A stretch of 42,653 bases of DNA, from positions 1-42,653 of IMG/VR virus record IMGVR_UViG_3300002059_000001; one strand, given 5' to 3'. Shown piece by piece: positions 8,127 through 23,733 of this stretch; the stretch's first letter is position 1, and the number at the start of each line of letters is the position of its first letter. The DNA is from a virus. Below the pieces are notes generated by a model that ran no database searches, was not told where the DNA came from, and worked only from the letters and a program-made list of their open reading frames with translations. The position numbers and the translations under genes were made by a program.

Positions 8127-9506
8127 ATGTCCCGCAAATTCCTACTTTCGGCTTCGGCCGCTATTTTGTTCTCGGCCGCTATGTTTGCGCCGGCGACAGC
8201 TTCCACCGCTCCCGAGCTCGCCGTTACGTTTAACGTCGACGGTCTCGTTAAAGGCGTCGCGCGCCTATACGACGCTCCCACTCTCGAATTGAAAGACGGC
8301 GAAGACGGCGAAACAAAGACCGGCGCAGAACTCGCGAACGAGATTAAGACCGCTCTCGACAAGTCTGTCGACGAAGTAAAAGAGCTCGCTCAAAAAGCTG
8401 TCGCTATGGCGGAGAGCGGCGAGAAGGCTCGTAAGGGCGAGACTGAAAAAGTCGACAACGCTGTTAAAACTATGAACGAACTTAAGACCGCGTTCGACGC
8501 ATTCCAACAAAAGATGGAACGCGACGGATCCGAAGAGAAGACGTTCAAAACCGCCGGCGAGCGGTTTATCGACTCGGACGAGTTTAAGGCTTTGACGGAC
8601 GGAACGGTTACGCAAGGCCGGGTCGCCTCTGTCGGCATGAAGACGATTACGTCTCTAACGACCGACGCCGACGGCTCCGCCGGAGATCTTATCCGGACCG
8701 AGCGCGTTCAATCTCAAATGCCAACGCTCCCGGATCGTCGTATGACTGTCCGAGATCTTATCGCTCCGGGACAGACGAACTCGAACGCTATCGAGTATGT
8801 TCAAGAAACAGGCTTTACGAATAACGCCGACATGGTCGCGGAAGCGACGCTTAAGCCCGAGTCTTCTATGAAGTTCGATCTTAAGACGGCTCCGGTTCGT
8901 AAAATTGCACACTGGATGCTCGCTTCCGCCGAAGTCCTAAACGACGCTCCCGGCCTTCGGTCCATGATCGATTATCGTCTACGCTACGGCGTCGATTATA
9001 AGGAAGAGGCGCAACTCCTTAACGGCGACGGTACAGGACAGAACCTATTCGGGATCCGTCCACAGGCTACGGATTACGCCGCGGCCTTCGCTGTCGACGC
9101 CGAGACCGAGATCGATAAGGTCCGCCTTGCTATCTTGCAAGCTGTCCTCGCCGAATATCCAGCGACCGGGATCGTTATTCATCCTACAGATTGGGCGAAG
9201 ATCGAAACCACGAAGGACACACAGGGTCGCTACATTATCGGCAATCCGCAGGGGACACTCTCTCCGACATTGTGGAGCCTTCCTGTCGTCGCCACTCAGG
9301 CGATGGAAGTCGATAAGTTCCTCGTCGGCGCGTTCCGTCAAGGCGCGCAGGTCTTCGACCGTATGGCGTCTACGGTTATGGTCTCGACCGAGGACTCCGA
9401 TAACTTCCGGAAGAACCTCGTAACGATCCTCGCCGAATCTCGGTTGGCTCTTACGGTTTATCGTCCGGAAGCCTTCGTCGAAGGCGACTTCGGAAACGTC
9501 GCTTAA
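8127..9506 (+). CDS. major capsid protein (HK97 fold) with N-terminal prodomain
   Basis: The ATG at 8127 lies 6 nt after AAGGAGA; the track start at 8109 is an in-frame TTG. A coiled-coil delta-like region is followed by capsid-type sequence (..LLNGDGTGQNLFGI.., ..HPTDWAKIE..). Confidence 0.92.
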   Translation: MSRKFLLSASAAILFSAAMFAPATASTAPELAVTFNVDGLVKGVARLYDAPTLELKDGEDGETKTGAELANEIKTALDKSVDEVKELAQKAVAMAESGEKARKGETEKVDNAVKTMNELKTAFDAFQQKMERDGSEEKTFKTAGERFIDSDEFKALTDGTVTQGRVASVGMKTITSLTTDADGSAGDLIRTERVQSQMPTLPDRRMTVRDLIAPGQTNSNAIEYVQETGFTNNADMVAEATLKPESSMKFDLKTAPVRKIAHWMLASAEVLNDAPGLRSMIDYRLRYGVDYKEEAQLLNGDGTGQNLFGIRPQATDYAAAFAVDAETEIDKVRLAILQAVLAEYPATGIVIHPTDWAKIETTKDTQGRYIIGNPQGTLSPTLWSLPVVATQAMEVDKFLVGAFRQGAQVFDRMASTVMVSTEDSDNFRKNLVTILAESRLALTVYRPEAFVEGDFGNVA

Positions 9507-9531
9507 GCGGCCTCCCGAAGGTAAAATATCG

Positions 9532-9557
9532 AGCGGGGGCTACGGCTCCCGCTTTTT
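9532..9557 (+). terminator. Rho-independent terminator after the capsid gene
   Basis: agcgggggc / gctcccgct forms a 9-bp stem (one G-U pair) with a tacg loop, followed by TTTTT. Confidence 0.8.
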
Positions 9558-9580
9558 GCTAACAACACTAAGGAAAGACC

Positions 9581-13092: not shown

Positions 13093-15879
13093 ATGTCGTC
13101 AGGTTCGGCTATTATCGGCGCTCTGAGAGTTGTTTTCGGGGCCGATACGGCCGCCTTCGAGAAGGGCGTCGACAAGGTCGAGCGCGAAGCGAAGAAGATC
13201 GAGAAGCGGCTCGTTAAGCTAGGGAAGAAGTTTACCGACGTCGGGAAGAAAATGTCCGTCGGGATTACGGCTCCTCTCCTCGCTATCGGCGTCGCCTCCA
13301 TAAAAACCGCCGCTTCCATGCAAGAGCTCGAGAGCGCGTTCGACGTTACTTTTAAGGGAGCTTCCTCGAGCGTTCGTAAATGGGCGGAAGAGACAGGGGA
13401 TCTCCTCGGCCGTTCGACGAAAGAGATCCAGACCTCGGCCGTCGCGTTTCAGTCTCTATTCGGGAAGGCTCTCGACCCGGCGCAAGCGACGGAGCTCACA
13501 AAGCAATTTACAGTTTTAACGCAAGATCTCGCGTCCTTTAAGGATCTGTCGAACGAGGTCGCGCAGCAAAAGCTATTCTCTGGTCTAACCGGCGAAGCGG
13601 AACCTCTTAAGTCTGTCGGCGTGTTTATAAACGCCGCGGCGACAGAAGCGAAAGCTCTCGAGCTCGGCCTCGTTAAGGTAAACGGGAAGTTCACAGATCA
13701 GCAGAAGATCCTCGCTCGAGCGGCTCTTATTCAAGAGCAACTCGCCGAAGCGAACGGCGACGTCGTTAAAACGTTCGACAGCACGACGAACCAGCTTAAG
13801 AGATCCGGAGCGGCCTTCGAGGAGCTCCGCGTCGTTATCGGGACACAGCTTCTCCCGGTTATCACTCCGCTAATTGAAAAAGTCGCCGACGCTCTTACGG
13901 CGTTCTCTAATCTCCCGGAGCCGATTGTTAATACGATCCTCGTCGTCGGCGGATTGGCCGCCGCTCTCGGTCCAGTTATTGCGACCGTGGGGACGGTTAT
14001 AACTCTTTTCGCTCCATTAACGGCCGGCCTCGTCGCAGTAACGGGAGCGACGACAGCGTTCGGCGCGGCTATGACTATAGCTCTCGGACCAATAGGTCTC
14101 GTCGTCGCCGCTCTCGGCCTTCTATACATGGCCTATCGGACTCTATCCCCGGCGATAAAAGACAATAAGGAAGCTCGAGACGAGCTATATTCTTTAATCT
14201 CTCAGAACGAAGAGCTCGGGAAAAGGGAGAAGGCCTCCACCCTCGAGCAAGCTCGGGCGAACCTCGAGGACGCGAAGTCTATCAGGGAGCGAATTAAAGC
14301 TCGTTTAGAGGAGCAAGAGATCCTCCTTAAGAAACAGATTAAAGGCTTCGTCGCCGTAAATGCTACTCCGCAGGGGAAGGCTCTCGGAAAAATAACCGGG
14401 ACGAACAAAAGAATTACGGCGAACATAGAGAAGACGGCCGCCGCTATCCGCGCCTCTCGTGAAGCGTTAGAGGAAAACTCTTCCGCTATCGAAGGCGTCG
14501 AGGCGAACCTAGCAAAGCTAGGACAGGAATCCGTCGTCGCCGGCGCGAAGACCGCGGCTCTTCGGAAGGAGCAAGCCTCCGCGACAAAGACAGCGAAGGA
14601 ATTAGAGAAGGCCGCTAAGAAGCTCGCCGAAGCTCACTCGAAGACCGCCGCCGGCGCGAAACAGGAAATCGAGGAGAACGCACGATTAACGGCCGCCCTA
14701 AAGATCTCGAGGGAAGAGTACAACATAACCGCCGAGGAGATCCGTCTCGTAGAGGCCGGGTATCGCGGGACGAAAGAACAAGTCCGCGCTCTCGCCGAGG
14801 AGCTCGTCGCAAGCCGAACGGCTATGGACGAAGTCTCCGAAGCTCGGAAACAGTCTATCGCGGACGAGGAGGAAGCGCAGCGCGCGCTACAGAAGACGGC
14901 CGAGGACAAGGCCGCGGCTCTCGAGAGAGCGGCGGAGGATCATACTCGGACCGTAGAATCAATCCAAAAAGAGATAGAGAATAACCGACTTCTTACCGAG
15001 GCTATGCAGATCTCGACAAGAGAGTACGAGATACAAGTCGAAGTCCTCCGCTCTCTCGAAAGTGGCTTTAACGGATCCGCTCTCGAGGCTCGGGCATTGG
15101 CCGAAGAGTTGTTAAATACTCGGGACGCTTTGAAGGAAATTACAGAGGAAACGGAGAAGGCCGAGGCCGCGCAAAATAAATTGAACAGCTCGACGTCCTC
15201 GAGTGATAACTCCGGATTTAAGTTCGCAGAGGACGAGGCGTTTTTAGAGGACTTCACTAACACACTTAACTCCGCCACAGATACGCTCGAGGCGTTTAAG
15301 GATAAAGACTTCGGCTCTGTTTTTTCAGGTGTTGGGGAAAGTATCTTCGCCGCGTTTGGGAAGGCCGGCGATGCTATAGACGAGAACGGGAAGAAGGCCT
15401 TAGAAACTTTACAGGCGATAGGAACACAGTTCGGTGCTCTCCTAGAGTCTATAAAGAGCGGCGACTGGTTAGATATTTTAACTGAAGGTTTAGGCTTATT
15501 GGGTTCTTTTTTTGGTAAGTCTGGCGGCGGTTTTGGAGCTGGAGAAGGAACTGGTTTCGGCGACATATTAGCAGGTTTCGGCGGTCTTTTTGGAGGCGGG
15601 AAAGCAAAAGGCGGCCCGGTCGCCGCCGGAGTGACCTATCTCGTCGGGGAGAAGGGGCCGGAACTATTCACTCCTCCGGGGAACGGAAATATCGTACCGA
15701 ACGACAAACTCGGCGGAGGGATGGTTAAAGTCGTCGTCGAGGCGAACGATTACTTCGACGCTCGGGTCGACGAGCGCGCGGCCGGTGTTGCCGAACCTGT
15801 CGCGCAGGTCGCGGCGACACAAGGGATCCAACAATACAACACGGCCGGACGCCGGCGTAATAAGCAGAGGCTCGCATAA
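13093..15879 (+). CDS. tape measure protein (928 aa)
   Basis: Long coiled-coil-rich protein with a central hydrophobic Gly/Ala block (ILVVGGLAAALGPVIATVG...) and a Gly-rich C-terminus. Lies after the chaperone pair. Confidence 0.9.
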   Translation: MSSGSAIIGALRVVFGADTAAFEKGVDKVEREAKKIEKRLVKLGKKFTDVGKKMSVGITAPLLAIGVASIKTAASMQELESAFDVTFKGASSSVRKWAEETGDLLGRSTKEIQTSAVAFQSLFGKALDPAQATELTKQFTVLTQDLASFKDLSNEVAQQKLFSGLTGEAEPLKSVGVFINAAATEAKALELGLVKVNGKFTDQQKILARAALIQEQLAEANGDVVKTFDSTTNQLKRSGAAFEELRVVIGTQLLPVITPLIEKVADALTAFSNLPEPIVNTILVVGGLAAALGPVIATVGTVITLFAPLTAGLVAVTGATTAFGAAMTIALGPIGLVVAALGLLYMAYRTLSPAIKDNKEARDELYSLISQNEELGKREKASTLEQARANLEDAKSIRERIKARLEEQEILLKKQIKGFVAVNATPQGKALGKITGTNKRITANIEKTAAAIRASREALEENSSAIEGVEANLAKLGQESVVAGAKTAALRKEQASATKTAKELEKAAKKLAEAHSKTAAGAKQEIEENARLTAALKISREEYNITAEEIRLVEAGYRGTKEQVRALAEELVASRTAMDEVSEARKQSIADEEEAQRALQKTAEDKAAALERAAEDHTRTVESIQKEIENNRLLTEAMQISTREYEIQVEVLRSLESGFNGSALEARALAEELLNTRDALKEITEETEKAEAAQNKLNSSTSSSDNSGFKFAEDEAFLEDFTNTLNSATDTLEAFKDKDFGSVFSGVGESIFAAFGKAGDAIDENGKKALETLQAIGTQFGALLESIKSGDWLDILTEGLGLLGSFFGKSGGGFGAGEGTGFGDILAGFGGLFGGGKAKGGPVAAGVTYLVGEKGPELFTPPGNGNIVPNDKLGGGMVKVVVEANDYFDARVDERAAGVAEPVAQVAATQGIQQYNTAGRRRNKQRLA

Positions 15880-16478
15880 TGAAGATCTTACCGACAACAC
15901 CGGCCCCCTCGGCCGTAACACCTTCTTTAGTAGACTTCGGAAATACTTTAACGCCGGCTCTCGGCGGGTCCGAGCAACGGATTAACCGTCTCGGAAATAG
16001 GTTTCGGCTCTCCGTAACTATGCCGCCGATGCAGAATAAAGAACAAGGAATGAAGTTCGTTAACCGCCTAGTCCGCGGCCGCTCCGAAGGCTTAAGAATG
16101 AAGTTCCCTCTATCTGGATTTAATCCCGGAACTCCCGGCTCGCCGGCCGTCGACGGCGCTAATCACGCCGGCCGCCTTTTAGACGTCGCCGGCTTTACGC
16201 CCGGATATCAAATTAAGGAGGGACAGTTTTTCTCGATAGAGACCGACGGACAACACTATCTCTATATGATCGACGCGGATAACTCCTCCTCGACCGGCGC
16301 TCCGTATGGGGCGAACTTAGTTATCAATCCTATGCTAAGGATCCCTCCGAGCGATGGGGATATATGTCACTTCGCGCAGCCTATGATCGAAGGTTTAATC
16401 GAGGGATCCGAGACACAATGGAATTATGCTCTCGACTATAACGTCGGGATAGAGTTCACAATTAAGGAGCGGAGATAA
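15879..16478 (+). CDS. distal tail protein-position gene
   Basis: TAATG overlap with the tape measure gene. 199 aa. The call rests on position. Confidence 0.55.
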   Translation: MKILPTTPAPSAVTPSLVDFGNTLTPALGGSEQRINRLGNRFRLSVTMPPMQNKEQGMKFVNRLVRGRSEGLRMKFPLSGFNPGTPGSPAVDGANHAGRLLDVAGFTPGYQIKEGQFFSIETDGQHYLYMIDADNSSSTGAPYGANLVINPMLRIPPSDGDICHFAQPMIEGLIEGSETQWNYALDYNVGIEFTIKERR

Positions 16479-17125
16479 TGAGCTTCGACCCGGAATTTAT
16501 AACGACGACGACTTTAGTTCGCCTCGAGCTTCCAGCTCAAACCCTCCGGATCTGCGACGGAGGTTTTGTCTTTTGGGGAGCGGAGCCGAACGGTTCCGGC
16601 GGAACGGCCGCGCAGGGATATCTCTCCGAACATGCAGATTATGGAACGTTATACGCCGGCGGTTCTTTATTGGACGGCGAAGGGGACGAAAGTCCAGCGG
16701 CCGTAATTACATTCCTCGCAAATTCGAACGCGGCTCTCAATTCTCTAACCGGCCCAGAAATGCAATGGAGCCCGGTCGCCATATGGCAAGCCTCTGTCGA
16801 CTCTCAGGACGGAACCGTTATCGCAGCTATTCCTCTCTTCTTCGGCTTCGTCGATATTCCGACCTTACGCGAAGGAGCGGAGGGACGGTTCGTCGATATG
16901 GAAATCGTTTCCGATACGGAGCGAATGTTCCTCGCAAATGAAGGGAACCGTCTATCCGAAGAGTCTCACCAGCGCCGCTATCCGGGAGAGCGTGGATTGT
17001 CTAATATGACAGGCGTCGAACGTCAGGTCGCTTGGGGGACGGAAGACCGCCCTCGAGCGTCCTCGGGTTCTAGCGGCGGCGGATCAAGTCCTTTCGTTCC
17101 CGATATCGTCCGCCATATTTTTTAA
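16478..17125 (+). CDS. tail (hub-associated) protein
   Basis: TAATG overlap. 215 aa. Lies in the GTA g13-like position between the distal tail gene and the peptidase-like gene. Confidence 0.5.
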   Translation: MSFDPEFITTTTLVRLELPAQTLRICDGGFVFWGAEPNGSGGTAAQGYLSEHADYGTLYAGGSLLDGEGDESPAAVITFLANSNAALNSLTGPEMQWSPVAIWQASVDSQDGTVIAAIPLFFGFVDIPTLREGAEGRFVDMEIVSDTERMFLANEGNRLSEESHQRRYPGERGLSNMTGVERQVAWGTEDRPRASSGSSGGGSSPFVPDIVRHIF

Positions 17126-17134
17126 GGTAAGAGC

Positions 17135-17542
17135 ATGAAAACCGAATTAGAAATCCGCCGAGCCGCGACGGCCGCAACGCAAAAGAAGTTCTCCGGCCGG
17201 CCTTTTAAATGGGGAGAGGTCGATTGTATTCGTATGGCTCGCTCTCATGCGGTTAAGATGGGGCATAAGCCTCCGCGTCTTCCGAGATACTCGACCCCGC
17301 AAGCGGCTATCCGTAATATAAAAAAGATGGGCTTCGAGAGTGTCGACGAGATCCTCGCGTCGATGTTCCCGAAGATCTCCCTAGCCTCTGCGAGAATGGG
17401 AGACTTCGTCGTCGCCGAAGGAGAGGCCGGTATAGACGCGGTCTTTATCTCTCTCGGCCGTAAAATAATGGGGTTTCATGCCGAAGCCGACGAGCTTGTC
17501 GTCGTGGATCCCGAAGTCGTTAAATCAGTATATAGAGTTTAA
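17135..17542 (+). CDS. tail-associated NlpC/P60-like (GTA g14-like) protein
   Basis: RPFKWGEVDCIRMARSH provides a candidate Cys/His pair. About 135 aa, directly upstream of the host-specificity gene. Confidence 0.5.
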   Translation: MKTELEIRRAATAATQKKFSGRPFKWGEVDCIRMARSHAVKMGHKPPRLPRYSTPQAAIRNIKKMGFESVDEILASMFPKISLASARMGDFVVAEGEAGIDAVFISLGRKIMGFHAEADELVVVDPEVVKSVYRV

Positions 17543-17544
17543 TC

Positions 17545-20500
17545 ATGGCAAAAGCCCTAAAGACTATCGGAAAAATAGCGTCGGTTGCGGCGGTCGTTCT
17601 TGCTTTCGTTCCCGGTGGACAGCCGTTCGCCGCGGCCGCTTCCGCTATAGCCGGCGTCGCTAATGCTGGAGCTTCACTCCTCGCACAGCCGGAGCCGATA
17701 GGAGGGGAGAGTACAAACGTTTTAATAGATAAGTCCGCTCCGACTCCTTATGTTATGGGCCGAACATTGACAGGCGGCGCGCTCGTACACGACGCCGGCT
17801 ACGGTTCCGACTATAAAAAAATTCCGAACCCTAATAGATCTATGGTGTTCGTCTATTCGGATTGCGGTCCAGTGCAAGAGATCGAAGCCTTATACGCCGA
17901 CGGAGCCTCGGTAGGAAGCGGCGGCGAGATTGGCGGATATTACGACGAGCGTATGCACTACGATAAGCTCTCCGGCTCTCGACCAGAGTCCCGCGCGCTC
18001 TCTGGAAATCAAGGAACAATCCCGGATTGGGGCTCTAGCTATAAATTATCCGGGAAGGCTTCCGGTCTCGTAACTATGAGATGGGATAAGAATCAAGAGG
18101 TCTACGCCGCGGGAACCCCGGACTTCGCGGCCTTGATTAAAGGCGTTCGAGTTTACTCTATTCGCGACGACAGCACATATCCGGGGGGCTCCGGCTCGTG
18201 CCGGCTCGGGGACGAGACGACTTACATCTATAGCGAGAACCCGGCCGACCATGCCATAACATATCTTTACGGCCGGTATGAGCTTGGCGAGCGGATCTTC
18301 GGCGTCGGGAAATCTGTCGACGGGATAGATCTTCCGGCCTTTGTCGAGTGGGCGAATGTTTGCGACGCTAATAACTGGAAAGTCGGCGGCGTAATGTATG
18401 AACCAGCCGACAAGTGGAACAATCTTAAGGTTATTATGCAAACTGGATCCGCTCGTCCTGTCCATAATAACGGACAGCTCTCCGTCGTGTTTGATGCGCC
18501 TAAAGTTCCTCTCGCTGTTTTCACAGAAGACGACCTAGCGAACGGAGATATAACGGTCCCGTCGACTAGAACCTTCCGGAATAGAATTAATTCAATTATA
18601 CCTATCTTCCGTTCAGTCTCTCACGAGTGGCAATTTATTTCCGGGACAGCCGTCACGGTTTCGGATTACGTTACAGAAGACGGAGAGATAAAGAGATCCG
18701 AACGTAAATACTCTCTTTGTCAGGATGCGACTCACGGCGCGCAGCTCGCCGCTTATGAGGTCGTTAATTCTCGAGAGCTCGAGGGGATAACCCTTCCGTT
18801 CAAACCGAAGATCTTACCGTATGGTTCCGGCGACGCTATCGAATTAAATATGCCGAACCTCGGCCTCGTCGGAACGTTCGTTATTCAGACGCGCTCGTTC
18901 AATCCTCTAAATGCTATTACGACCGTCACAGTTAAAACCGAGACCGCGGCGAAACATAGCTTCGCGTTAGGAGCTTCCACAACAGTTCCGACGGCCCCTA
19001 CGCTTATGTTCGGAGCGGACCTTGATAGGATATCTTACAACGCGACCGGACAGGCCGCTATCAACGAAACACAAGTGCAAACTTCGTGGACGAACGGGAT
19101 CCAGATCGACGGAATTTCCGCGTCCGGAACTGCGACCGTAAACGTCTCAGGACATAGTCGAGTATATCCCGACGAGACAGTAACGGTTCAAAGCGGACAG
19201 CTTGTCGGATTGGTGCAAGATACCGACTACGTTATCTATTATGATGATATTCCTCGAGAAGGCGGCGCGGTCGGTTACTCGGCTATTCCCTCGTCGGATT
19301 ATTTAAACGATCCCGACGGCGGTAAAGGCCGACACTTCGTCGGATATATAAAAACGCCGAAGACGGACAGCGCCGCGAATACTGTCGGCGTTCCGCCCAT
19401 CCCTCCTAATGTTGTTCCCGAAACAGTCCCTAACGCTCTCGGCCTTGGCGGCGTCGTCGCGGAAGAGATTATTCAGAACATATCTACGAACGCCTCTTCG
19501 GTCGCGGCATTACAGGCGACCTATGGATCTACGGCTTCCGCCGCCGCTTCCGCCGCTTCCGCCGCGGCCGCACAGTCCGCCGCCGAGAGCGCTCAAAGTT
19601 TATCAGAGGCCGCCCAGTCCGCCGCCGAGACCGCCGCCGCTTCCGCCGATAGTTTCCAAAGTTCCGCGGCCGCAAGTGCTACCTCGGCGTCGACTTCGGC
19701 TTCGGCTTCTGAGACCGCTAAAAATATAGCGACGGCCGCACAGACCGCAGCGTCCGGATCTGCTACAGCGGCGGAGCAACATTCCTCCTCCGCGTCTATC
19801 TCGGCCTCGACGGCGTCTCAGTCCACCGCCGCCGGCCGTCCCTCGACCTTTGAAAGCGGCGGAGAATATTTTGTTTCCGCGCCTCTGTCAGACCCTATAA
19901 CGGGCTCTCCGGCCGACAATTCCTCGAACATTGTTTCGGGATCCGACACCGACGGAAGCTATCTTTCGAACACAAGCTCCGGCGACGCTCCGTCCATCTT
20001 ACAAAGGCTCGGGATCCCTTACGTTCCCGGAGAGAAGTATCGTGTCTCGACGAGGTTTAAGGTTCTGTCCGGATCTCCTTCGTCTGTAATTATCAGAGGT
20101 CGCCGGATTAATGGGGATTATACTCAGTCTCTCTCCGCGCATGGATTAACCGTCCCTCTCGCTTCGACAACGGTCGACGATTACGTCTTCGAATTTACAG
20201 CGAGTCAGGCGAGGTTCGACGAGGGAACGAGAATAGTAAGAGCCGAGGTTGATATAAACCCGGACGAGAACCAAGTCCTCGCCGTTTACAGTTTAAACAT
20301 AGAAAACATTACGGCCGTCGCGGCCGCCGAAGATAGCGCTACGGCCGCCGCTTCGAGCGCTTCCGCCGCCGCCGCGTCTGAGACCTCGGCCGGACAAAGC
20401 GCAAGCGCGGCTCAAACGTCCGAGACCGCCGCCGAGACCTCTCGCTCCGCCGCGGAGACTTCCGAGATAAACGCCGCGACGTCCGAAACCTCGGCCGCCG

Positions 20501-23500
20501 CTTCGTCCGCCGCCGCCGCGACGTCTGAGACGAACGCCGCTAACTCCGCGTCCTCGGCCGGTGGATCCGCGTCTTCCGCGACGTCCTCCGCTTCCGCCGC
20601 GGAAACCAGCGCTTCCGCCGCCGCGACGAGTGCTTCCGCCGCGGAACAATCTTCCGTAGATGCGACGACCGCACAGTCCGCCGCACAGTCCGCCGCGACC
20701 GCCTCGGCTTCGAGCGCTTCCGCCGCGTCCGCTTCTGAGACCGCCGCGGGGCAAAGCGCGACTTCCGCCCAAACCGCGCGGACTTCGGCCGAGACCGCCG
20801 CCGCGAATGCGTCGACAAGTGAGGGGAACGCCGCGTCCTCTGAGACGAGCGCGCAGGGATCCGCCGCTTCCGCCGCTTCGAGTGAAACGGCCGCGGCTAA
20901 CTCCGCAACCGACGCCGGGAACTCTTCTTCGGCCGCGGCGACGTCCGCGACAGAGGCCGCTACGTCCGCGACAGAATCGGAAACCTCGGCTTCCGCGTCG
21001 GAACAATCTTCGATTAATGCGGCGACGTCTGAGACGAACGCCGCTTCTTCCGCTACGGCCGCGTCGTCGAGCGCTTCTTCGGCCGCCGCCTCTGAGACCG
21101 CCGCCGGGCAAAGCGCTAACGCCGCCTCGTCAAGTGAGACGGCCGCGGCGACCTCTGCTTCTAACGCGGCCAACTCTGAGACTTCGGCCGCGACGTCTGA
21201 GACGAACGCCGCCGGCTCGGCGAGTTCTGCGACGTCTTCCGCCTCGAGCGCCGCTTCGAGTGCCGGGAGCGCTGGATCTTCCGCCTCGGCCGCGGCTAAC
21301 TCCGCAACTCAAGCCGCGACCTCCGCGACCGACGCCGGCGTCTCTTCTTCGGCCGCCGCCGCTTCCGCCGTTAATGCGTCCACAGCGCAAGAGTTATCCG
21401 AGGCCGCGACGCGGGAGGCCCGACCTTCTACCTTTGAATCTGGCGGGAAATACTTCACCTCTTCCACTTTATCTCCTCCCGAAACCGCCGCGAATGCCGA
21501 CGCTAATTCTTCCATAGAAGCCGGCTCCGATGCCGACGGATATTTTTTGAAGATAAACGACCCGGACAAACAGCCGTCGATCTTTCAGAAGTTCGGGGTC
21601 TCGTATAATCCCGGAGATAAATATCGGGTATCTGTCCGTCTCAAATCTCTAACCGGAACGCCGTCTCGTGTAATTCTCCGGGGTCGGAGATTAAGCGGAG
21701 ATTATGCTACATCTTTAGGCACAGATGGTCTTATCGTTACTGAAACCGCCACGACGACGGCGACGGATTATGTCTTCGAGTTTTCAGCAACTCAGGCTCT
21801 CTACGATACAGGCGTTCGTATATTGAAAGCCGAGGTCGAGGCTAACCCTCTCGAAGAGCAAACGGTCGCGATATATAAACTTGATATCGAAAATATTACG
21901 GCGCAATCCGAAGCCGAAGACAGCGCCGCCGCTTCCGCTTCGAGCGCTTCTTCCGCCGCCGCTTCTGAGACGGCCGCAGGACAAAGCGCCAACGCCGCCC
22001 AAACCTCTGAGACGGCCGCGTCTACCTCTGCCGCCAATGCCTCCGCCTCGGAAGGTAACGCGGCGACCTCAGAAACGAATGCGGCCGGATCCTCGTCCGC
22101 CGCCGCCGCGTCTGAGAGCGTCGCCGCGACGGCCGCGGCCAATGCCTCGACCTCTGAAACAAACGCCGCCGCCTCTGAGACGAGCGCCGCGTCTTCCGCG
22201 TCCGCCGCCGCCTCGAGTGCTTCGTCGGCTTCGGCCTCGGAGACAGCGGCCGGGCAATTCTCGAACGCCGCTTCGAGTTCTGAGACCGCCGCTTCGACGT
22301 CCGCCGCCAATGCCGCCGCTAGTTCTTCCAGCGCCGCGACCTCCGCGACGAACGCCGCCGGCTCCGCTTCGGCCGCAAGTTCAAGTCAAACCTTAAGCGC
22401 CGCCGCGGCCGATGCAGCGGAAGCCGCTGTCGTCGATACGCTCCCGTCTACTTTTGAAAACCCCGACGCTTACTTCTCCCATAACTTAGGAGGAGCTCCT
22501 TCCGCGATGCCGTCTCTAACTGGCGGTTCGAATTGGGAGGCCATAACGGACCCCACAGAGGGGCCGGGAGTTGCCGTTACACCGGGGGAGACCGGAGATT
22601 GGTTAAGTCAAAAAGGTGTCCTTCCGGCTCTTCCGGGACACACATATAGATTAACTGCGAGGATTAAGGAGACCGCGACTCCTACGAACGATAGAGTTCA
22701 AGTTAGAATGTGGCGATTGGACGCTAGTTATTCGACTTTAGGGCAAGCCGCAAAGACCGCGACCCTAATCTTAAACTCTGTCGAAGAGGTTACGCACGAG
22801 TTCACTTTATCGACTGGACATTACAATTCGGGCGCGCGGTTTATTCGAGCGGCTCTGTCGGTAAACCTGCTTTCCAACGGCTCAAACGATGGATTGTGGG
22901 AAATCTATATGCTTAAGCTCGAGGATATCACAGATCTAAAAACCCTCGAGGCGACCGTTAATAGTAACGCGACCGTCTCCGCAAATAATACGACTTCGAT
23001 AGCTTCCTTAAGTAATACGGTTACGGCGCAGGGAAATTCCCTTTCGGGTCTATCCGCTTCCGCGTCCGCGACACAGACCGCCGTCGATGATATCGAGCAA
23101 GGCCTCCTCGCGTCCATTGGGTTTCGGGTTAAAGCGGGAACAAGCGGAGCGGAGTTTGAATTGTCCGCGCTCGACGGCGGAGATATATCCGGATCGGTCG
23201 CGCGAATTTCCGCGGCCGCTATTATACTCGACGGAACTCTCTCGGCCGCTCACTTCGCCGATGGGTCGATCTTTAATATCGCCGAGGAGGATATCGCGCT
23301 CTCGGCTTATCTAAGCCCGTCGACAGAATACACCGTTCTCTCGAAAGCCTTTACTAGCGCCGGCGGGAAGGTTCGTTTCGATATCAACATAGGAGGCCAT
23401 CTTGGAAACACCGGCGGACCTAGTGTCTCCGACATGCATAGCCAGACTCGACAGCTTGTTTGCAAGTTATATCGAGACAACGTTTTTATAGGTAATTATT

Positions 23501-23733
23501 TTTCTGGAACTTTCTCCACGGTCTACGACGACGTCGCGGATAAGTATGTTAAGAATGGAATTGAAACTATATCTTTTATTGCGACCGATAATCCAGCCGC
23601 CGGGACATATACTTATGATATCCGTCTTATTGAGACCGTGATTATTGAGAACACAATCTCGGGGAATAACGTCGGGGATCCAAGAATAAATATCTCTTCG
23701 GGTTACGCCTATATTACCGAGTTCAACGATTAG
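17545..23733 (+). CDS. host specificity / central tail fibre protein (2062 aa): J/GTA g15-like N-terminus, three [Ser/Ala heptad rod + CBM-like domain] modules, J-like C-terminus
   Basis: The first ~640 aa and the last ~260 aa look like lambda J / GTA g15-type tip proteins. The interior is described under findings. Confidence 0.9.
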   Translation: MAKALKTIGKIASVAAVVLAFVPGGQPFAAAASAIAGVANAGASLLAQPEPIGGESTNVLIDKSAPTPYVMGRTLTGGALVHDAGYGSDYKKIPNPNRSMVFVYSDCGPVQEIEALYADGASVGSGGEIGGYYDERMHYDKLSGSRPESRALSGNQGTIPDWGSSYKLSGKASGLVTMRWDKNQEVYAAGTPDFAALIKGVRVYSIRDDSTYPGGSGSCRLGDETTYIYSENPADHAITYLYGRYELGERIFGVGKSVDGIDLPAFVEWANVCDANNWKVGGVMYEPADKWNNLKVIMQTGSARPVHNNGQLSVVFDAPKVPLAVFTEDDLANGDITVPSTRTFRNRINSIIPIFRSVSHEWQFISGTAVTVSDYVTEDGEIKRSERKYSLCQDATHGAQLAAYEVVNSRELEGITLPFKPKILPYGSGDAIELNMPNLGLVGTFVIQTRSFNPLNAITTVTVKTETAAKHSFALGASTTVPTAPTLMFGADLDRISYNATGQAAINETQVQTSWTNGIQIDGISASGTATVNVSGHSRVYPDETVTVQSGQLVGLVQDTDYVIYYDDIPREGGAVGYSAIPSSDYLNDPDGGKGRHFVGYIKTPKTDSAANTVGVPPIPPNVVPETVPNALGLGGVVAEEIIQNISTNASSVAALQATYGSTASAAASAASAAAAQSAAESAQSLSEAAQSAAETAAASADSFQSSAAASATSASTSASASETAKNIATAAQTAASGSATAAEQHSSSASISASTASQSTAAGRPSTFESGGEYFVSAPLSDPITGSPADNSSNIVSGSDTDGSYLSNTSSGDAPSILQRLGIPYVPGEKYRVSTRFKVLSGSPSSVIIRGRRINGDYTQSLSAHGLTVPLASTTVDDYVFEFTASQARFDEGTRIVRAEVDINPDENQVLAVYSLNIENITAVAAAEDSATAAASSASAAAASETSAGQSASAAQTSETAAETSRSAAETSEINAATSETSAAASSAAAATSETNAANSASSAGGSASSATSSASAAETSASAAATSASAAEQSSVDATTAQSAAQSAATASASSASAASASETAAGQSATSAQTARTSAETAAANASTSEGNAASSETSAQGSAASAASSETAAANSATDAGNSSSAAATSATEAATSATESETSASASEQSSINAATSETNAASSATAASSSASSAAASETAAGQSANAASSSETAAATSASNAANSETSAATSETNAAGSASSATSSASSAASSAGSAGSSASAAANSATQAATSATDAGVSSSAAAASAVNASTAQELSEAATREARPSTFESGGKYFTSSTLSPPETAANADANSSIEAGSDADGYFLKINDPDKQPSIFQKFGVSYNPGDKYRVSVRLKSLTGTPSRVILRGRRLSGDYATSLGTDGLIVTETATTTATDYVFEFSATQALYDTGVRILKAEVEANPLEEQTVAIYKLDIENITAQSEAEDSAAASASSASSAAASETAAGQSANAAQTSETAASTSAANASASEGNAATSETNAAGSSSAAAASESVAATAAANASTSETNAAASETSAASSASAAASSASSASASETAAGQFSNAASSSETAASTSAANAAASSSSAATSATNAAGSASAASSSQTLSAAAADAAEAAVVDTLPSTFENPDAYFSHNLGGAPSAMPSLTGGSNWEAITDPTEGPGVAVTPGETGDWLSQKGVLPALPGHTYRLTARIKETATPTNDRVQVRMWRLDASYSTLGQAAKTATLILNSVEEVTHEFTLSTGHYNSGARFIRAALSVNLLSNGSNDGLWEIYMLKLEDITDLKTLEATVNSNATVSANNTTSIASLSNTVTAQGNSLSGLSASASATQTAVDDIEQGLLASIGFRVKAGTSGAEFELSALDGGDISGSVARISAAAIILDGTLSAAHFADGSIFNIAEEDIALSAYLSPSTEYTVLSKAFTSAGGKVRFDINIGGHLGNTGGPSVSDMHSQTRQLVCKLYRDNVFIGNYFSGTFSTVYDDVADKYVKNGIETISFIATDNPAAGTYTYDIRLIETVIIENTISGNNVGDPRINISSGYAYITEFND
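19490..19839 (+). repeat. Ser/Ala heptad (21-nt periodic) rod 1, about 16 heptads
   Basis: STASAAA SAASAAA AQSAAES AQSLSEA AQSAAET ... STAAGRP, ending in phase at PSTFESGG. Confidence 0.85.
20321..21423 (+). repeat. Ser/Ala heptad (21-nt periodic) rod 2, about 52 uninterrupted heptads
   Basis: SATAAAS SASAAAA SETSAGQ SASAAQT SETAAET ... SAVNAST AQELSEA. Position 1 is Ser/Ala in every heptad. Position 5 is Ala in about 49 of 53. Confidence 0.9.
21907..22443 (+). repeat. Ser/Ala heptad (21-nt periodic) rod 3, about 26 heptads
   Basis: SAAASAS SASSAAA SETAAGQ SANAAQT ... SQTLSAA AADAAEA, ending in phase at PSTFEN. Confidence 0.85.

Follow-up and report, generated by a model that had tools for sequence, protein, structure and literature searches.

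The central tip proteins of R4C and of the Rhodobacter capsulatus gene transfer agent (RcGTA) are trimeric (PMC10276861, PMC7296036), and in both of these megatrons residues 1-45/46 make up the iris, or penetration, segment (PMC10276861, PMC7296036). The R4C megatron also carries a CBM11-like domain (PMC10276861). Carbohydrate-binding modules (CBMs) and CBM-like domains are known from other phage adhesion devices as well, among them the BppA-type modules and CBM-bearing Tal proteins found in phages of lactococci and streptococci (PMC7291167); the BppA CBM was first likened to the CBM4 structures 1GUI and 1GU3 (PMC7291167). Coiled-coil central fibers and Stf-type shafts are likewise known, and for the proximal shaft of lambda Stf a trimeric coiled-coil model has been given in Ur-lambda (PMC12617516). 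Here we describe a tail-tip gene of an uncultured virus, at positions 17,545 to 23,733 on the plus strand of the IMG/VR virus record IMGVR_UViG_3300002059_000001, the whole 42,653-nucleotide stretch of which was analyzed and is referred to below as the window.

The product of this gene is probably a trimeric central tail fiber, in which a hub is followed by an Ala/Ser coiled coil bearing three CBM-like nodes that would serve multivalent polysaccharide binding. The translation of the open reading frame (ORF) confirms three modules, each a rod followed by a globular domain of ~161-166 residues, at the positions given for them in the original prediction, a reading of this DNA made from its letters alone. 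The features of the gene, all on the plus strand, are as follows.

17545..23733, plus strand: central tail fiber / tail tip gene, with ATG start (2062 aa including stop codon; ORF list and translation)
17545..19464, plus strand: N-terminal tail-tip hub of J/TipJ type, residues 1-640 (PHROG profiles and relatives)
17545..17685, plus strand: hydrophobic Ala/Gly/Val-rich N-terminal segment, residues 1-47 (Kyte-Doolittle means 1.2-1.65 over residues 1-39)
19477..19836, plus strand: rod 1, residues 645-764, Ala/Ser-rich, with a weaker heptad pattern
19837..20319, plus strand: domain D1, residues 765-925, CBM4/9-like beta-jelly-roll (AlphaFold2, Foldseek and family hidden Markov model, 146.6 bits)
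20320..21420, plus strand: rod 2, residues 926-1292 (367 aa = 7x52+3), with a 119-aa super-repeat
21421..21906, plus strand: domain D2, residues 1293-1454, an old paralog of D1 (identity and family model)
21907..22440, plus strand: rod 3, residues 1455-1632 (178 aa = 7x25+3), with a 91-aa super-repeat
22441..22938, plus strand: domain D3, residues 1633-1798, a separate subtype of the same family (identities and family model)
22939..23124, plus strand: short C-terminal coiled coil with an ordinary hydrophobic core, residues ~1799-1860 (read from the translation; aligns to the coil of a relative, L002)
23125..23730, plus strand: C-terminal tip region, residues ~1861-2062, starting IGFRVKAG; presumed distal receptor-binding tip, of no known family

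The three domains open with PSTFE at residues 766, 1294 and 1634 (nt 19840, 21424 and 22444) and close with LNIENIT (917-923), LDIENIT (1446-1452) and LKLEDIT (1790-1796), respectively. All of the internal motifs that had been quoted as shared are found (PGEKYRVSTRFK / PGDKYRVSVRLK / PGHTYRLTARIK; YVFEF / YVFEF / VTHEF; RIVRAEV / RILKAEV / RFIRAAL). The proposed closing consensus, (L)(N/D/E)IE(N/D)IT, holds for D1 and D2, while the LKLEDIT of D3 is not a strict fit. A six-frame scan of the window with the family hidden Markov model (HMM) returns exactly three copies, at 143-158 bits, and their description as clear but diverged paralogs is borne out: D1 and D2, each other's closest relatives, are 57% identical (E 3e-61), and D1 and D3 30% identical (E 4e-16). 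D3 is nearer to domains in two metagenomic proteins, P0002 (43%) and P0010 (39%), than to D1/D2 (28%), and the window protein therefore joins two subtypes. At the DNA level D1 and D2 are 59% identical, with a proportion of synonymous differences (pS) of 0.71, which is saturated (synonymous divergence, dS, above 2), and a nonsynonymous divergence (dN) of 0.40; these values indicate an old duplication, both copies of which are under purifying selection.

Such divergence also bears on whether the three-module structure might be an artifact of assembly, through expansion or collapse of repeats, as could be suspected of a repeat-rich gene assembled from short metagenomic reads (contig name k119_...). 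Exact DNA repeats within the gene reach no more than 26 nt, however, and repeat copies are 60-89% identical; D1 and D2 have the saturated synonymous sites noted above. Moreover, the reading frame of 17545-23733 stays open across 6.2 kb, and an identical 2062-aa protein is recorded on 4 contigs, ERZ27298444:k119_428107 among them. An artifact is, on these grounds (the 26-nt maximal repeat, the diverged copies and the four contigs), scarcely credible, and we have rejected it.

The fold of the domain was modelled from an alignment (A3) of 57 sequences, consisting of 54 full-length domain instances from profile matches and the three window copies. The resulting AlphaFold2 (AF2) model, with a pLDDT of 95.7 and a pTM of 0.89, is an all-beta sandwich of nine beta-strands and one short helix, and supersedes an earlier model from a three-sequence alignment (pLDDT 67, moderate). 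In a Foldseek search of the PDB, the top match is to CBM16 (2zey/2zew; E 6e-8, TM score 0.65 by query and 0.72 by target), followed by CBM4 (1gu3, E 3e-6, and 1gui), CBM22, CBM61 and CBM28, and there are matches also to CBM-like domains in two phage tailspikes, CBA120 TSP4 and K2-2 TSP. The beta-sandwich that the original prediction had anticipated is thus what the model gives, with CBM16, CBM4 and CBM22 as its leading structural matches. The best matches in BFVD are uncultured-phage proteins, a "tip attachment protein J", tail fibers and minor tail proteins, several of them with a CenC-like annotation.

At the level of sequence the relationship is remote. A profile made from the three window domains alone, searched against 1.84 billion proteins, recovers 90 cluster representatives at E<=1e-3. 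Nine lower-ranking matches, with three partial profile matches each, were checked (P0018, P0019, P0025, P0028, P0032, P0037, P0040, P0049 and P0079; library-wide E 1.6e-11 to 2.4e-4), and Pfam identifies all nine as CBM_4_9 proteins (E 1e-15 to 1e-25), the Pfam match overlying the window-profile segment in five of them (P0018, P0019, P0025, P0037 and P0079). In the forward direction, six of the 57 family members match CBM_4_9 (PF02018) at E<=0.1 (best 1.3e-3), and no other Pfam family is matched by two or more of them. Among the window domains, D1 (13.2 bits, E 0.12) and D3 (15.3 bits, E 0.027) give sub-threshold alignments that overlap in similar register, and D2 gives no match. Because of the AF2/Foldseek matches and these reverse profile matches, the assignment as a CBM4/9-type jelly-roll is supported at the level of fold and of remote homology, though not at the Pfam threshold. 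From sequence, then, we regard the window domains as divergent relatives of CBM_4_9 (the CenC-like modules), not as members by the Pfam criterion. With CBM_4_9 and with CBM16, CBM4 and CBM22 they share the beta-jelly-roll fold and a remote but significant sequence relationship. They differ from CBM_4_9 in a signature of their own, composed of a PSxF entry, a PGRxYR strand and an EDIT exit, and from both CBM_4_9 and the BppA-type CBM (PF22637) in being set within a coiled coil, rather than in Dit/Tal loops or beside an enzyme.

The rods between these domains had been put at about 16, 52 and 26 heptads, and measure 17.1, 52.4 and 25.4. Their description as Ser/Ala-only was overstated: Ser and Ala make up 65-69% of the residues, the remainder being T, E, N, Q and G. 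In Fourier analysis, rods 2 and 3 show sharp peaks at periods of 7.0 and 3.5. With the heptad register anchored on the domain preceding each rod, position 1 is Ser in 46 of the 52 heptads of rod 2 and 21 of the 25 of rod 3, and position 5 is Ala in 48/52 and 22/25; Ser and Ala are thereby spaced +4/+3, like the d and a positions of a coiled coil. Residues of the LIVMFWY class account for 1.6-2.8% of rods 2 and 3, and there is no Pro in the 665 residues of the three rods. Repeat spacings in the DNA of the gene are all multiples of 21 nt.

Longer repeats are superimposed upon the heptads. In rod 2 the super-repeat of 119 aa equals 17 heptads, with SETxAGQ at residues 945, 1064 and 1183; in rod 3 that of 91 aa equals 13 heptads, at residues 1474 and 1565. 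These super-repeats suggest that rods lengthen or shorten by whole sets of heptads at a time.

Among known proteins, the rods resemble the shaft of lambda Stf. Matches of the full-length protein to PHROG 3279 and PHROG 1419 (tail fiber), with E about 5e-31, align to the rods, and rod 3 is 53% identical, in register, to the Stf proximal shaft over 55 aa (E 0.003). In common with the Stf proximal coil (residues 102-393) and these PHROGs, the window rods have SETNAAx-type heptads and small core residues. Unlike that of Stf, however, the window coil lies in a central rather than a side fiber, is poorer still in charged and hydrophobic residues, and is broken periodically by globular domains. A fold switch of the kind described for F7 pyocin, where Leu/Ile/Val occupy the L positions of the coil pattern SxSxxMxxLxS (PMC12874032), was considered for the long rods and rejected, as they lack such Leu/Ile/Val positions (LIVMFWY content as above).

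The same composition might instead be read as that of flexible, disordered linkers tethering three independent lectin domains, like those that join CBMs to catalytic domains in glycoside hydrolases, since the rods are of low complexity, are rich in small and polar residues and find no match in the PDB. Against this stand the strictness of the heptads (position 1 is Ser, and position 5 Ala, in ~90% of them each), the absence of Pro, the resemblance to the Stf proximal coil, which is seen as a fiber, and the quantization of linker length across 30 unrelated proteins described next. Disorder is thus very improbable, and we have rejected it on account of heptad strictness, lack of Pro and this length rule.

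When rod length is measured from the profile end of one domain to the profile start of the next, both inter-domain rods of the window, 367 and 178 aa long, leave a remainder of 3 on division by 7 (3 mod 7). The same holds for 54 of 73 inter-domain linkers of rod-like composition in other proteins and, if only one (the first) linker is counted per protein, for 20 of 30 (binomial p 9e-11). The linkers take 18 different values, from 38 to 318 aa. Exceptions to the 7n+3 rule fall mostly into classes 0, 5 and 6, of which classes 0 and 6 are those expected from a coil stutter or stammer. That the rods end in phase, as had been claimed from the window alone, is therefore correct for both of its linkers and extends to other proteins. 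The rule shows a rigid coupling between coil and domain at each of the two junctions. The coil would then be effectively continuous, with each chain looping out laterally as a jelly-roll whose opening strand (PSxF) and closing strand (EDIT) would be neighbors next to the coil.

Such tight coupling is also what would be expected if the jelly-rolls were structural nodes without a ligand of their own, acting as hinges or as clamps that, while the protein folds, fix the three chains of a slippery, low-complexity Ala/Ser coil in their proper register. This is the main rival to glycan binding, and the two roles may coexist. The strict 7n+3 rule is a point in its favor, as is the placement of conserved residues at the coil-domain junctions (the PSxF entry and EDIT exit) and in core strands; heptads with an Ala/Ser-only core, arranged in 119- and 91-aa super-repeats, would moreover be prone to mis-registration. 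On the other hand, divergence is high among the copies of a single protein (D3 from D1/D2 in the window protein, and the several subtypes within P0004), which would be needless in domains that served as clamps alone; the characterized members of the family to which the domain is homologous bind carbohydrate; and L002 builds a long central fiber coil without any such domain. A purely structural role is, in our judgment, unlikely.

Returning to the trimeric, glycan-binding fiber as the probable reading, one can sketch its course as follows. The N-terminal ~640 residues, the hydrophobic N-terminal segment included, would form the tail-tip hub, from which a thin three-stranded alpha-helical coil would emerge, its core nearly all Ala (a) and Ser (d). 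At three points each chain would exit the coil, form a jelly-roll of ~160 aa and re-enter in the same heptad register, and a short ordinary coiled coil with a tip domain of ~200 aa would end the fiber. If the protein is trimeric, by analogy with R4C and RcGTA, three nodes of three CBM-like domains would give nine per virion. Taking 0.148 nm per helical residue and allowing ~4 nm per node, the rods would be ~18, 54 and 26 nm long and the fiber ~110 nm, with nodes ~18, 76 and 106 nm from the hub; the R. capsulatus capsule has been quoted as 40-130 nm thick, comparable to this fiber length (PMC7296036).

The most likely function of such a fiber would be multivalent, reversible binding of surface polysaccharide (capsule, exopolysaccharide or lipopolysaccharide) along its length, by which the virion would be concentrated and oriented ahead of the engagement of a final receptor by the distal tip or the hub. 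No fiber-sized ORF lies between the J-type gene and the endolysin, by the ORF list and annotation, and in this phage, without a separate side-fiber gene, the nodes of the central fiber would do the polysaccharide binding. A comparable plan is found in the trimeric autotransporter adhesins SadA and BadA, in which a long trimeric coiled-coil stalk bears small in-register globular domains for multivalent adhesion. The likeness is one of architecture: their sequences and domains are unrelated to those of the window fiber, and they are bacterial surface proteins rather than parts of a virion.

Several observations weigh against this reading. No window domain reaches the CBM_4_9 gathering score of 25.9 bits, and the NCBIfam model GTA_spike_fiber (NF048003) matches D2 at 21.1 bits (E 3.7e-4), under its cut-off of 36 bits. 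Conservation across the family peaks at the domain termini (PSxF and EDIT) and in the PGRxYR strand, a pattern that suits a framework as well as binding. GBD-type jelly-rolls, Cry toxin domain III and the MAM domains among the fold matches, also bind proteins or serve as spacers. A PDB sequence search with rod 3 returns no solved structure that would back an Ala/Ser-core trimer. Finally, no related prophage was found among 185,579 reference genomes.

The breadth of the fold raises the alternative that the domains bind a protein receptor or other non-glycan surface feature, or mediate fiber-fiber or fiber-tail contacts; besides Cry toxin domain III and the MAM domains, the fold matches include the substrate-recognition domain of Fbs1 and the flagellar sheath protein FlaA1. 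The top structural matches, however, are the glycan-binding modules CBM16, CBM4 and CBM22, all nine of the lower-ranking sequence matches checked are CBM_4_9 proteins, and the phage precedents bind cell-wall saccharides (PMC7291167). We consider the non-glycan alternative quite improbable. The sub-cut-off similarity to GTA_spike_fiber recurs in the family, with 5 of the 57 members matching NF048003 at E<=0.01 (best 3.2e-5), all under the cut-off, and may, on this sequence evidence, be real remote homology. The RcGTA head spike fiber has been found experimentally to bind capsule polysaccharide (PMC10218006). This protein, Rcc01080, resembles the window domains in that weak but recurrent profile similarity and in being beta-rich and lectin-like; it differs from them as a monomeric head decoration, outside the tail fiber.

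Searched with the A3 HMM, ~60 distant metagenomic fiber protein clusters carry from 1 to ~19 of these modules behind differing N-terminal anchors, and in the stronger profile matches the domain is flanked by sequence that is 70-98% S/A/T/E/Q/N/G. P0004 (4870 aa) has 19 copies, P0006 (5201 aa) 15, P0054 (3019 aa) 12 and P0014 8; the 19 domain copies of P0004 fall into different subtypes. The window-type hub is shared by P0005, P0010 and P0052, and that of PHROG 5616 type by P0011; the hubs of P0001 and P0002 are of lambda-J type (PHROG 31, E 1e-64 and 1e-98), and other proteins have neither. The module is thereby joined to at least three unrelated N-terminal kinds, two of them tail-tip hubs. 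P0001 shares with the window protein the junction into rod 1 (…TYGSTASAA…). The occurrence of one module on differing N-terminal parts, together with this shared junction, indicates a cassette exchanged among fibers.

Module number varies among the nearer relatives as well: L001/P0005 has one D1-type module, P0010 one of D3 type and L002 none, a conventional hydrophobic coiled coil there replacing the modules. As to P0004, its copies are often spaced by 52-aa (7x7+3) rods, and its PHROG matches are to rod-type tail-fiber families only.

Among catalogued sequences, on the other hand, the module is hard to find. The isolated domains have no above-threshold match in Pfam, PHROGs, NCBIfam or PDB sequence searches, the module being absent from PHROGs. 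A tblastn search with D1, D3 and another family member against 50,697 deposited phage genomes gave nothing significant (best E 0.06), and a word-index protein search gave no match for D1 and one fragment for the 57-sequence alignment. The verdict of an unusual architecture fits deposited phages and PHROGs but is overstated for metagenomes, where the arrangement recurs in ~60 clusters with up to ~19 copies. The combination of this domain family and its junction motifs, alternation with Ala/Ser rods, the 7n+3 rule and high copy number was not found in the 50,697 phage genomes, in PHROGs or in the searchable literature.

Tentatively, and with some doubt, one may go further and propose that the PSxF...EDIT jelly-roll plus Ala/Ser rod is an undescribed, horizontally exchanged unit of phage fibers, in which a lateral CBM4/9-derived insertion leaves a trimeric coil uninterrupted under a strict 7n+3 rule, giving fibers of 100 nm and more with 1 to ~19 diverged glycan-binding nodes set at defined intervals, and hence a new architectural class of receptor-binding protein. 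Were this so, these would be fibers built to penetrate, or to "walk" through, thick polysaccharide layers with multiple specificities. The host range of phages is decided by their receptor-binding proteins, which are engineered more often than any other part; a module comprising a tunable rod and a putative sugar-binding node, with its junction motifs and 7n+3 rule, could guide the design of chimeric fibers and set their reach and valency. A name and a fold for a family missed by the curated Pfam threshold and by PHROGs would also help to annotate viral dark matter, as its members are found within very large "hypothetical" proteins from metagenomes. The rod itself, with its Ala(a)/Ser(d) core and nearly no hydrophobic residues over 50+ heptads, would be an extreme coiled coil.

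That the 2062-aa protein is a tail-tip (central fiber) protein is supported, from sequence, by its hub and by the position of its gene. The hub matches PHROG 5616 (tail fiber) at E 2.5e-52 over residues 7-761, and PHROG 31 ("central tail fiber J") at E 6.7e-16, the latter match being limited to residues 223-441; with the gene order after the tape measure, these two matches uphold the earlier call of a tail tip protein. Among other comparisons of the hub, NCBIfam TipJ_rel scores 16.9 bits against a cut-off of 140, BLASTP against lambda J gives E 0.69, Pfam has no match to the hub, and a PDB sequence search with the N-terminus finds none. The nearest cultured relatives are the host specificity J proteins of Caulobacter phage Kronos and related phages (37% identity over residues 149-487), and the tail-tip gene order of Kronos is identical to that of the window. 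A search of IMG/VR for relatives returned only L001, L002 and a fragment, L005, the hub being 50-54% identical to those of L001 and L002. In L001, a hub-like protein upstream of J (8908-9570) ends in a run of ~20 glycines, and two large ORFs downstream of J (15653-19446; 744 and 496 aa), possibly side fibers or spikes, have no counterpart in the window.

The N-terminal ~50 residues are mostly invariant in L001 and L002. Residues 1-47 are a candidate membrane-penetration ("iris") helix of the GTA/R4C megatron type, by analogy with the N-terminal segments described above. Like RcGTA g15 and the R4C megatron, the window tip protein starts with a hydrophobic segment of ~45 aa, has an NlpC/P60-type gene directly upstream and is without a separate gpI-like gene (the gene at 17135-17542 lies directly before 17545); a CBM-like domain is present in both the R4C megatron and the window protein. 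The megatrons, however, lack a long distal fiber and bind separate tail fibers instead. No match to Pfam Phage-tail_3 or GTA_TIM was found in the window protein; the g15 likeness proposed for it is one of gene layout and a hydrophobic N-terminus.

At the other end of the protein, the short hydrophobic coil is followed by IGFRVKAGTSGAEFELSA and then by the region of ~200 aa. This tip has no match in Pfam, PHROGs, the PDB or deposited phages. Its best BLASTP alignment to lambda J has an E of 0.035 over 25 aa, and its sole likeness is a weak one, to the tip of the module-free L002 (E 5e-5). The C-terminus does not align to lambda J, and a J-like C-terminal part, as had been proposed, therefore lacks sequence support. 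The IGFRVKAG that follows the coil (22939-23200) is a possible beta "seed". In overall plan the window protein is nonetheless comparable to lambda J/TipJ and the central fibers of F7 pyocins, with which it shares gene position, profile similarity over part of the hub, the general succession of hub, coiled coil and beta-rich tip, and, at the C-terminal end, a short hydrophobic coil with a possible beta "seed" after it. It differs from lambda J/TipJ in that FN3 domains were not detected, from lambda J in its C-terminal tip, which is unrelated in sequence, and from lambda J and the F7 pyocin fibers in having its coil broken by CBM-like nodes.

The genes that precede the fiber gene are these.

13093..17542, plus strand: upstream tail-tip genes (PHROGs and Pfam), comprising the following four
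13093-15879, plus strand: tape measure gene, 928 aa
15879-16478, plus strand: distal tail protein, PHROG 1302
16478-17125, plus strand: tail protein, PHROG 2048
17135-17542, plus strand: DUF6950/NlpC-P60-like protein, 135 aa

The fiber gene thus stands downstream of tape measure, distal tail, hub and K-like genes, in the layout of lambda J/TipJ. The 135-aa protein, which adjoins its 5' end, matches DUF6950 at E 2e-22 and NlpC/P60 below threshold, and occupies the same place, directly upstream of the fiber gene, as lambda K and GTA g14.

The window codes for the gene set of a siphophage (large terminase, portal, major head protein, tail genes and endolysin) and also for RecT-like, exonuclease VIII-like, methyltransferase and DnaB-like helicase proteins; there are no tRNA genes in its 42,653 nt. 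It covers almost all of the contig ERZ27298444:k119_428107 (42,723 bp) and appears to be a near-complete ~42.7-kb genome of an uncultured siphophage. Megablast of 13-24 kb against deposited phages gave no match, and two genome scans and two metagenome scans for relatives of the window protein yielded none that could be confirmed.

Within the rods, the ORF list also contains long overlapping frames of 169-285 aa, at 20293-21111 (minus), 20412-21173 (minus), 20660-21517 (plus), 21801-22310 (minus) and 21881-22396 (plus). These are most likely by-products of GCN/TCN codon repeats, and are unlikely to be real genes. GC content is 0.64 at 20-21 kb, as against ~0.54 elsewhere, and the GC skew is negative.

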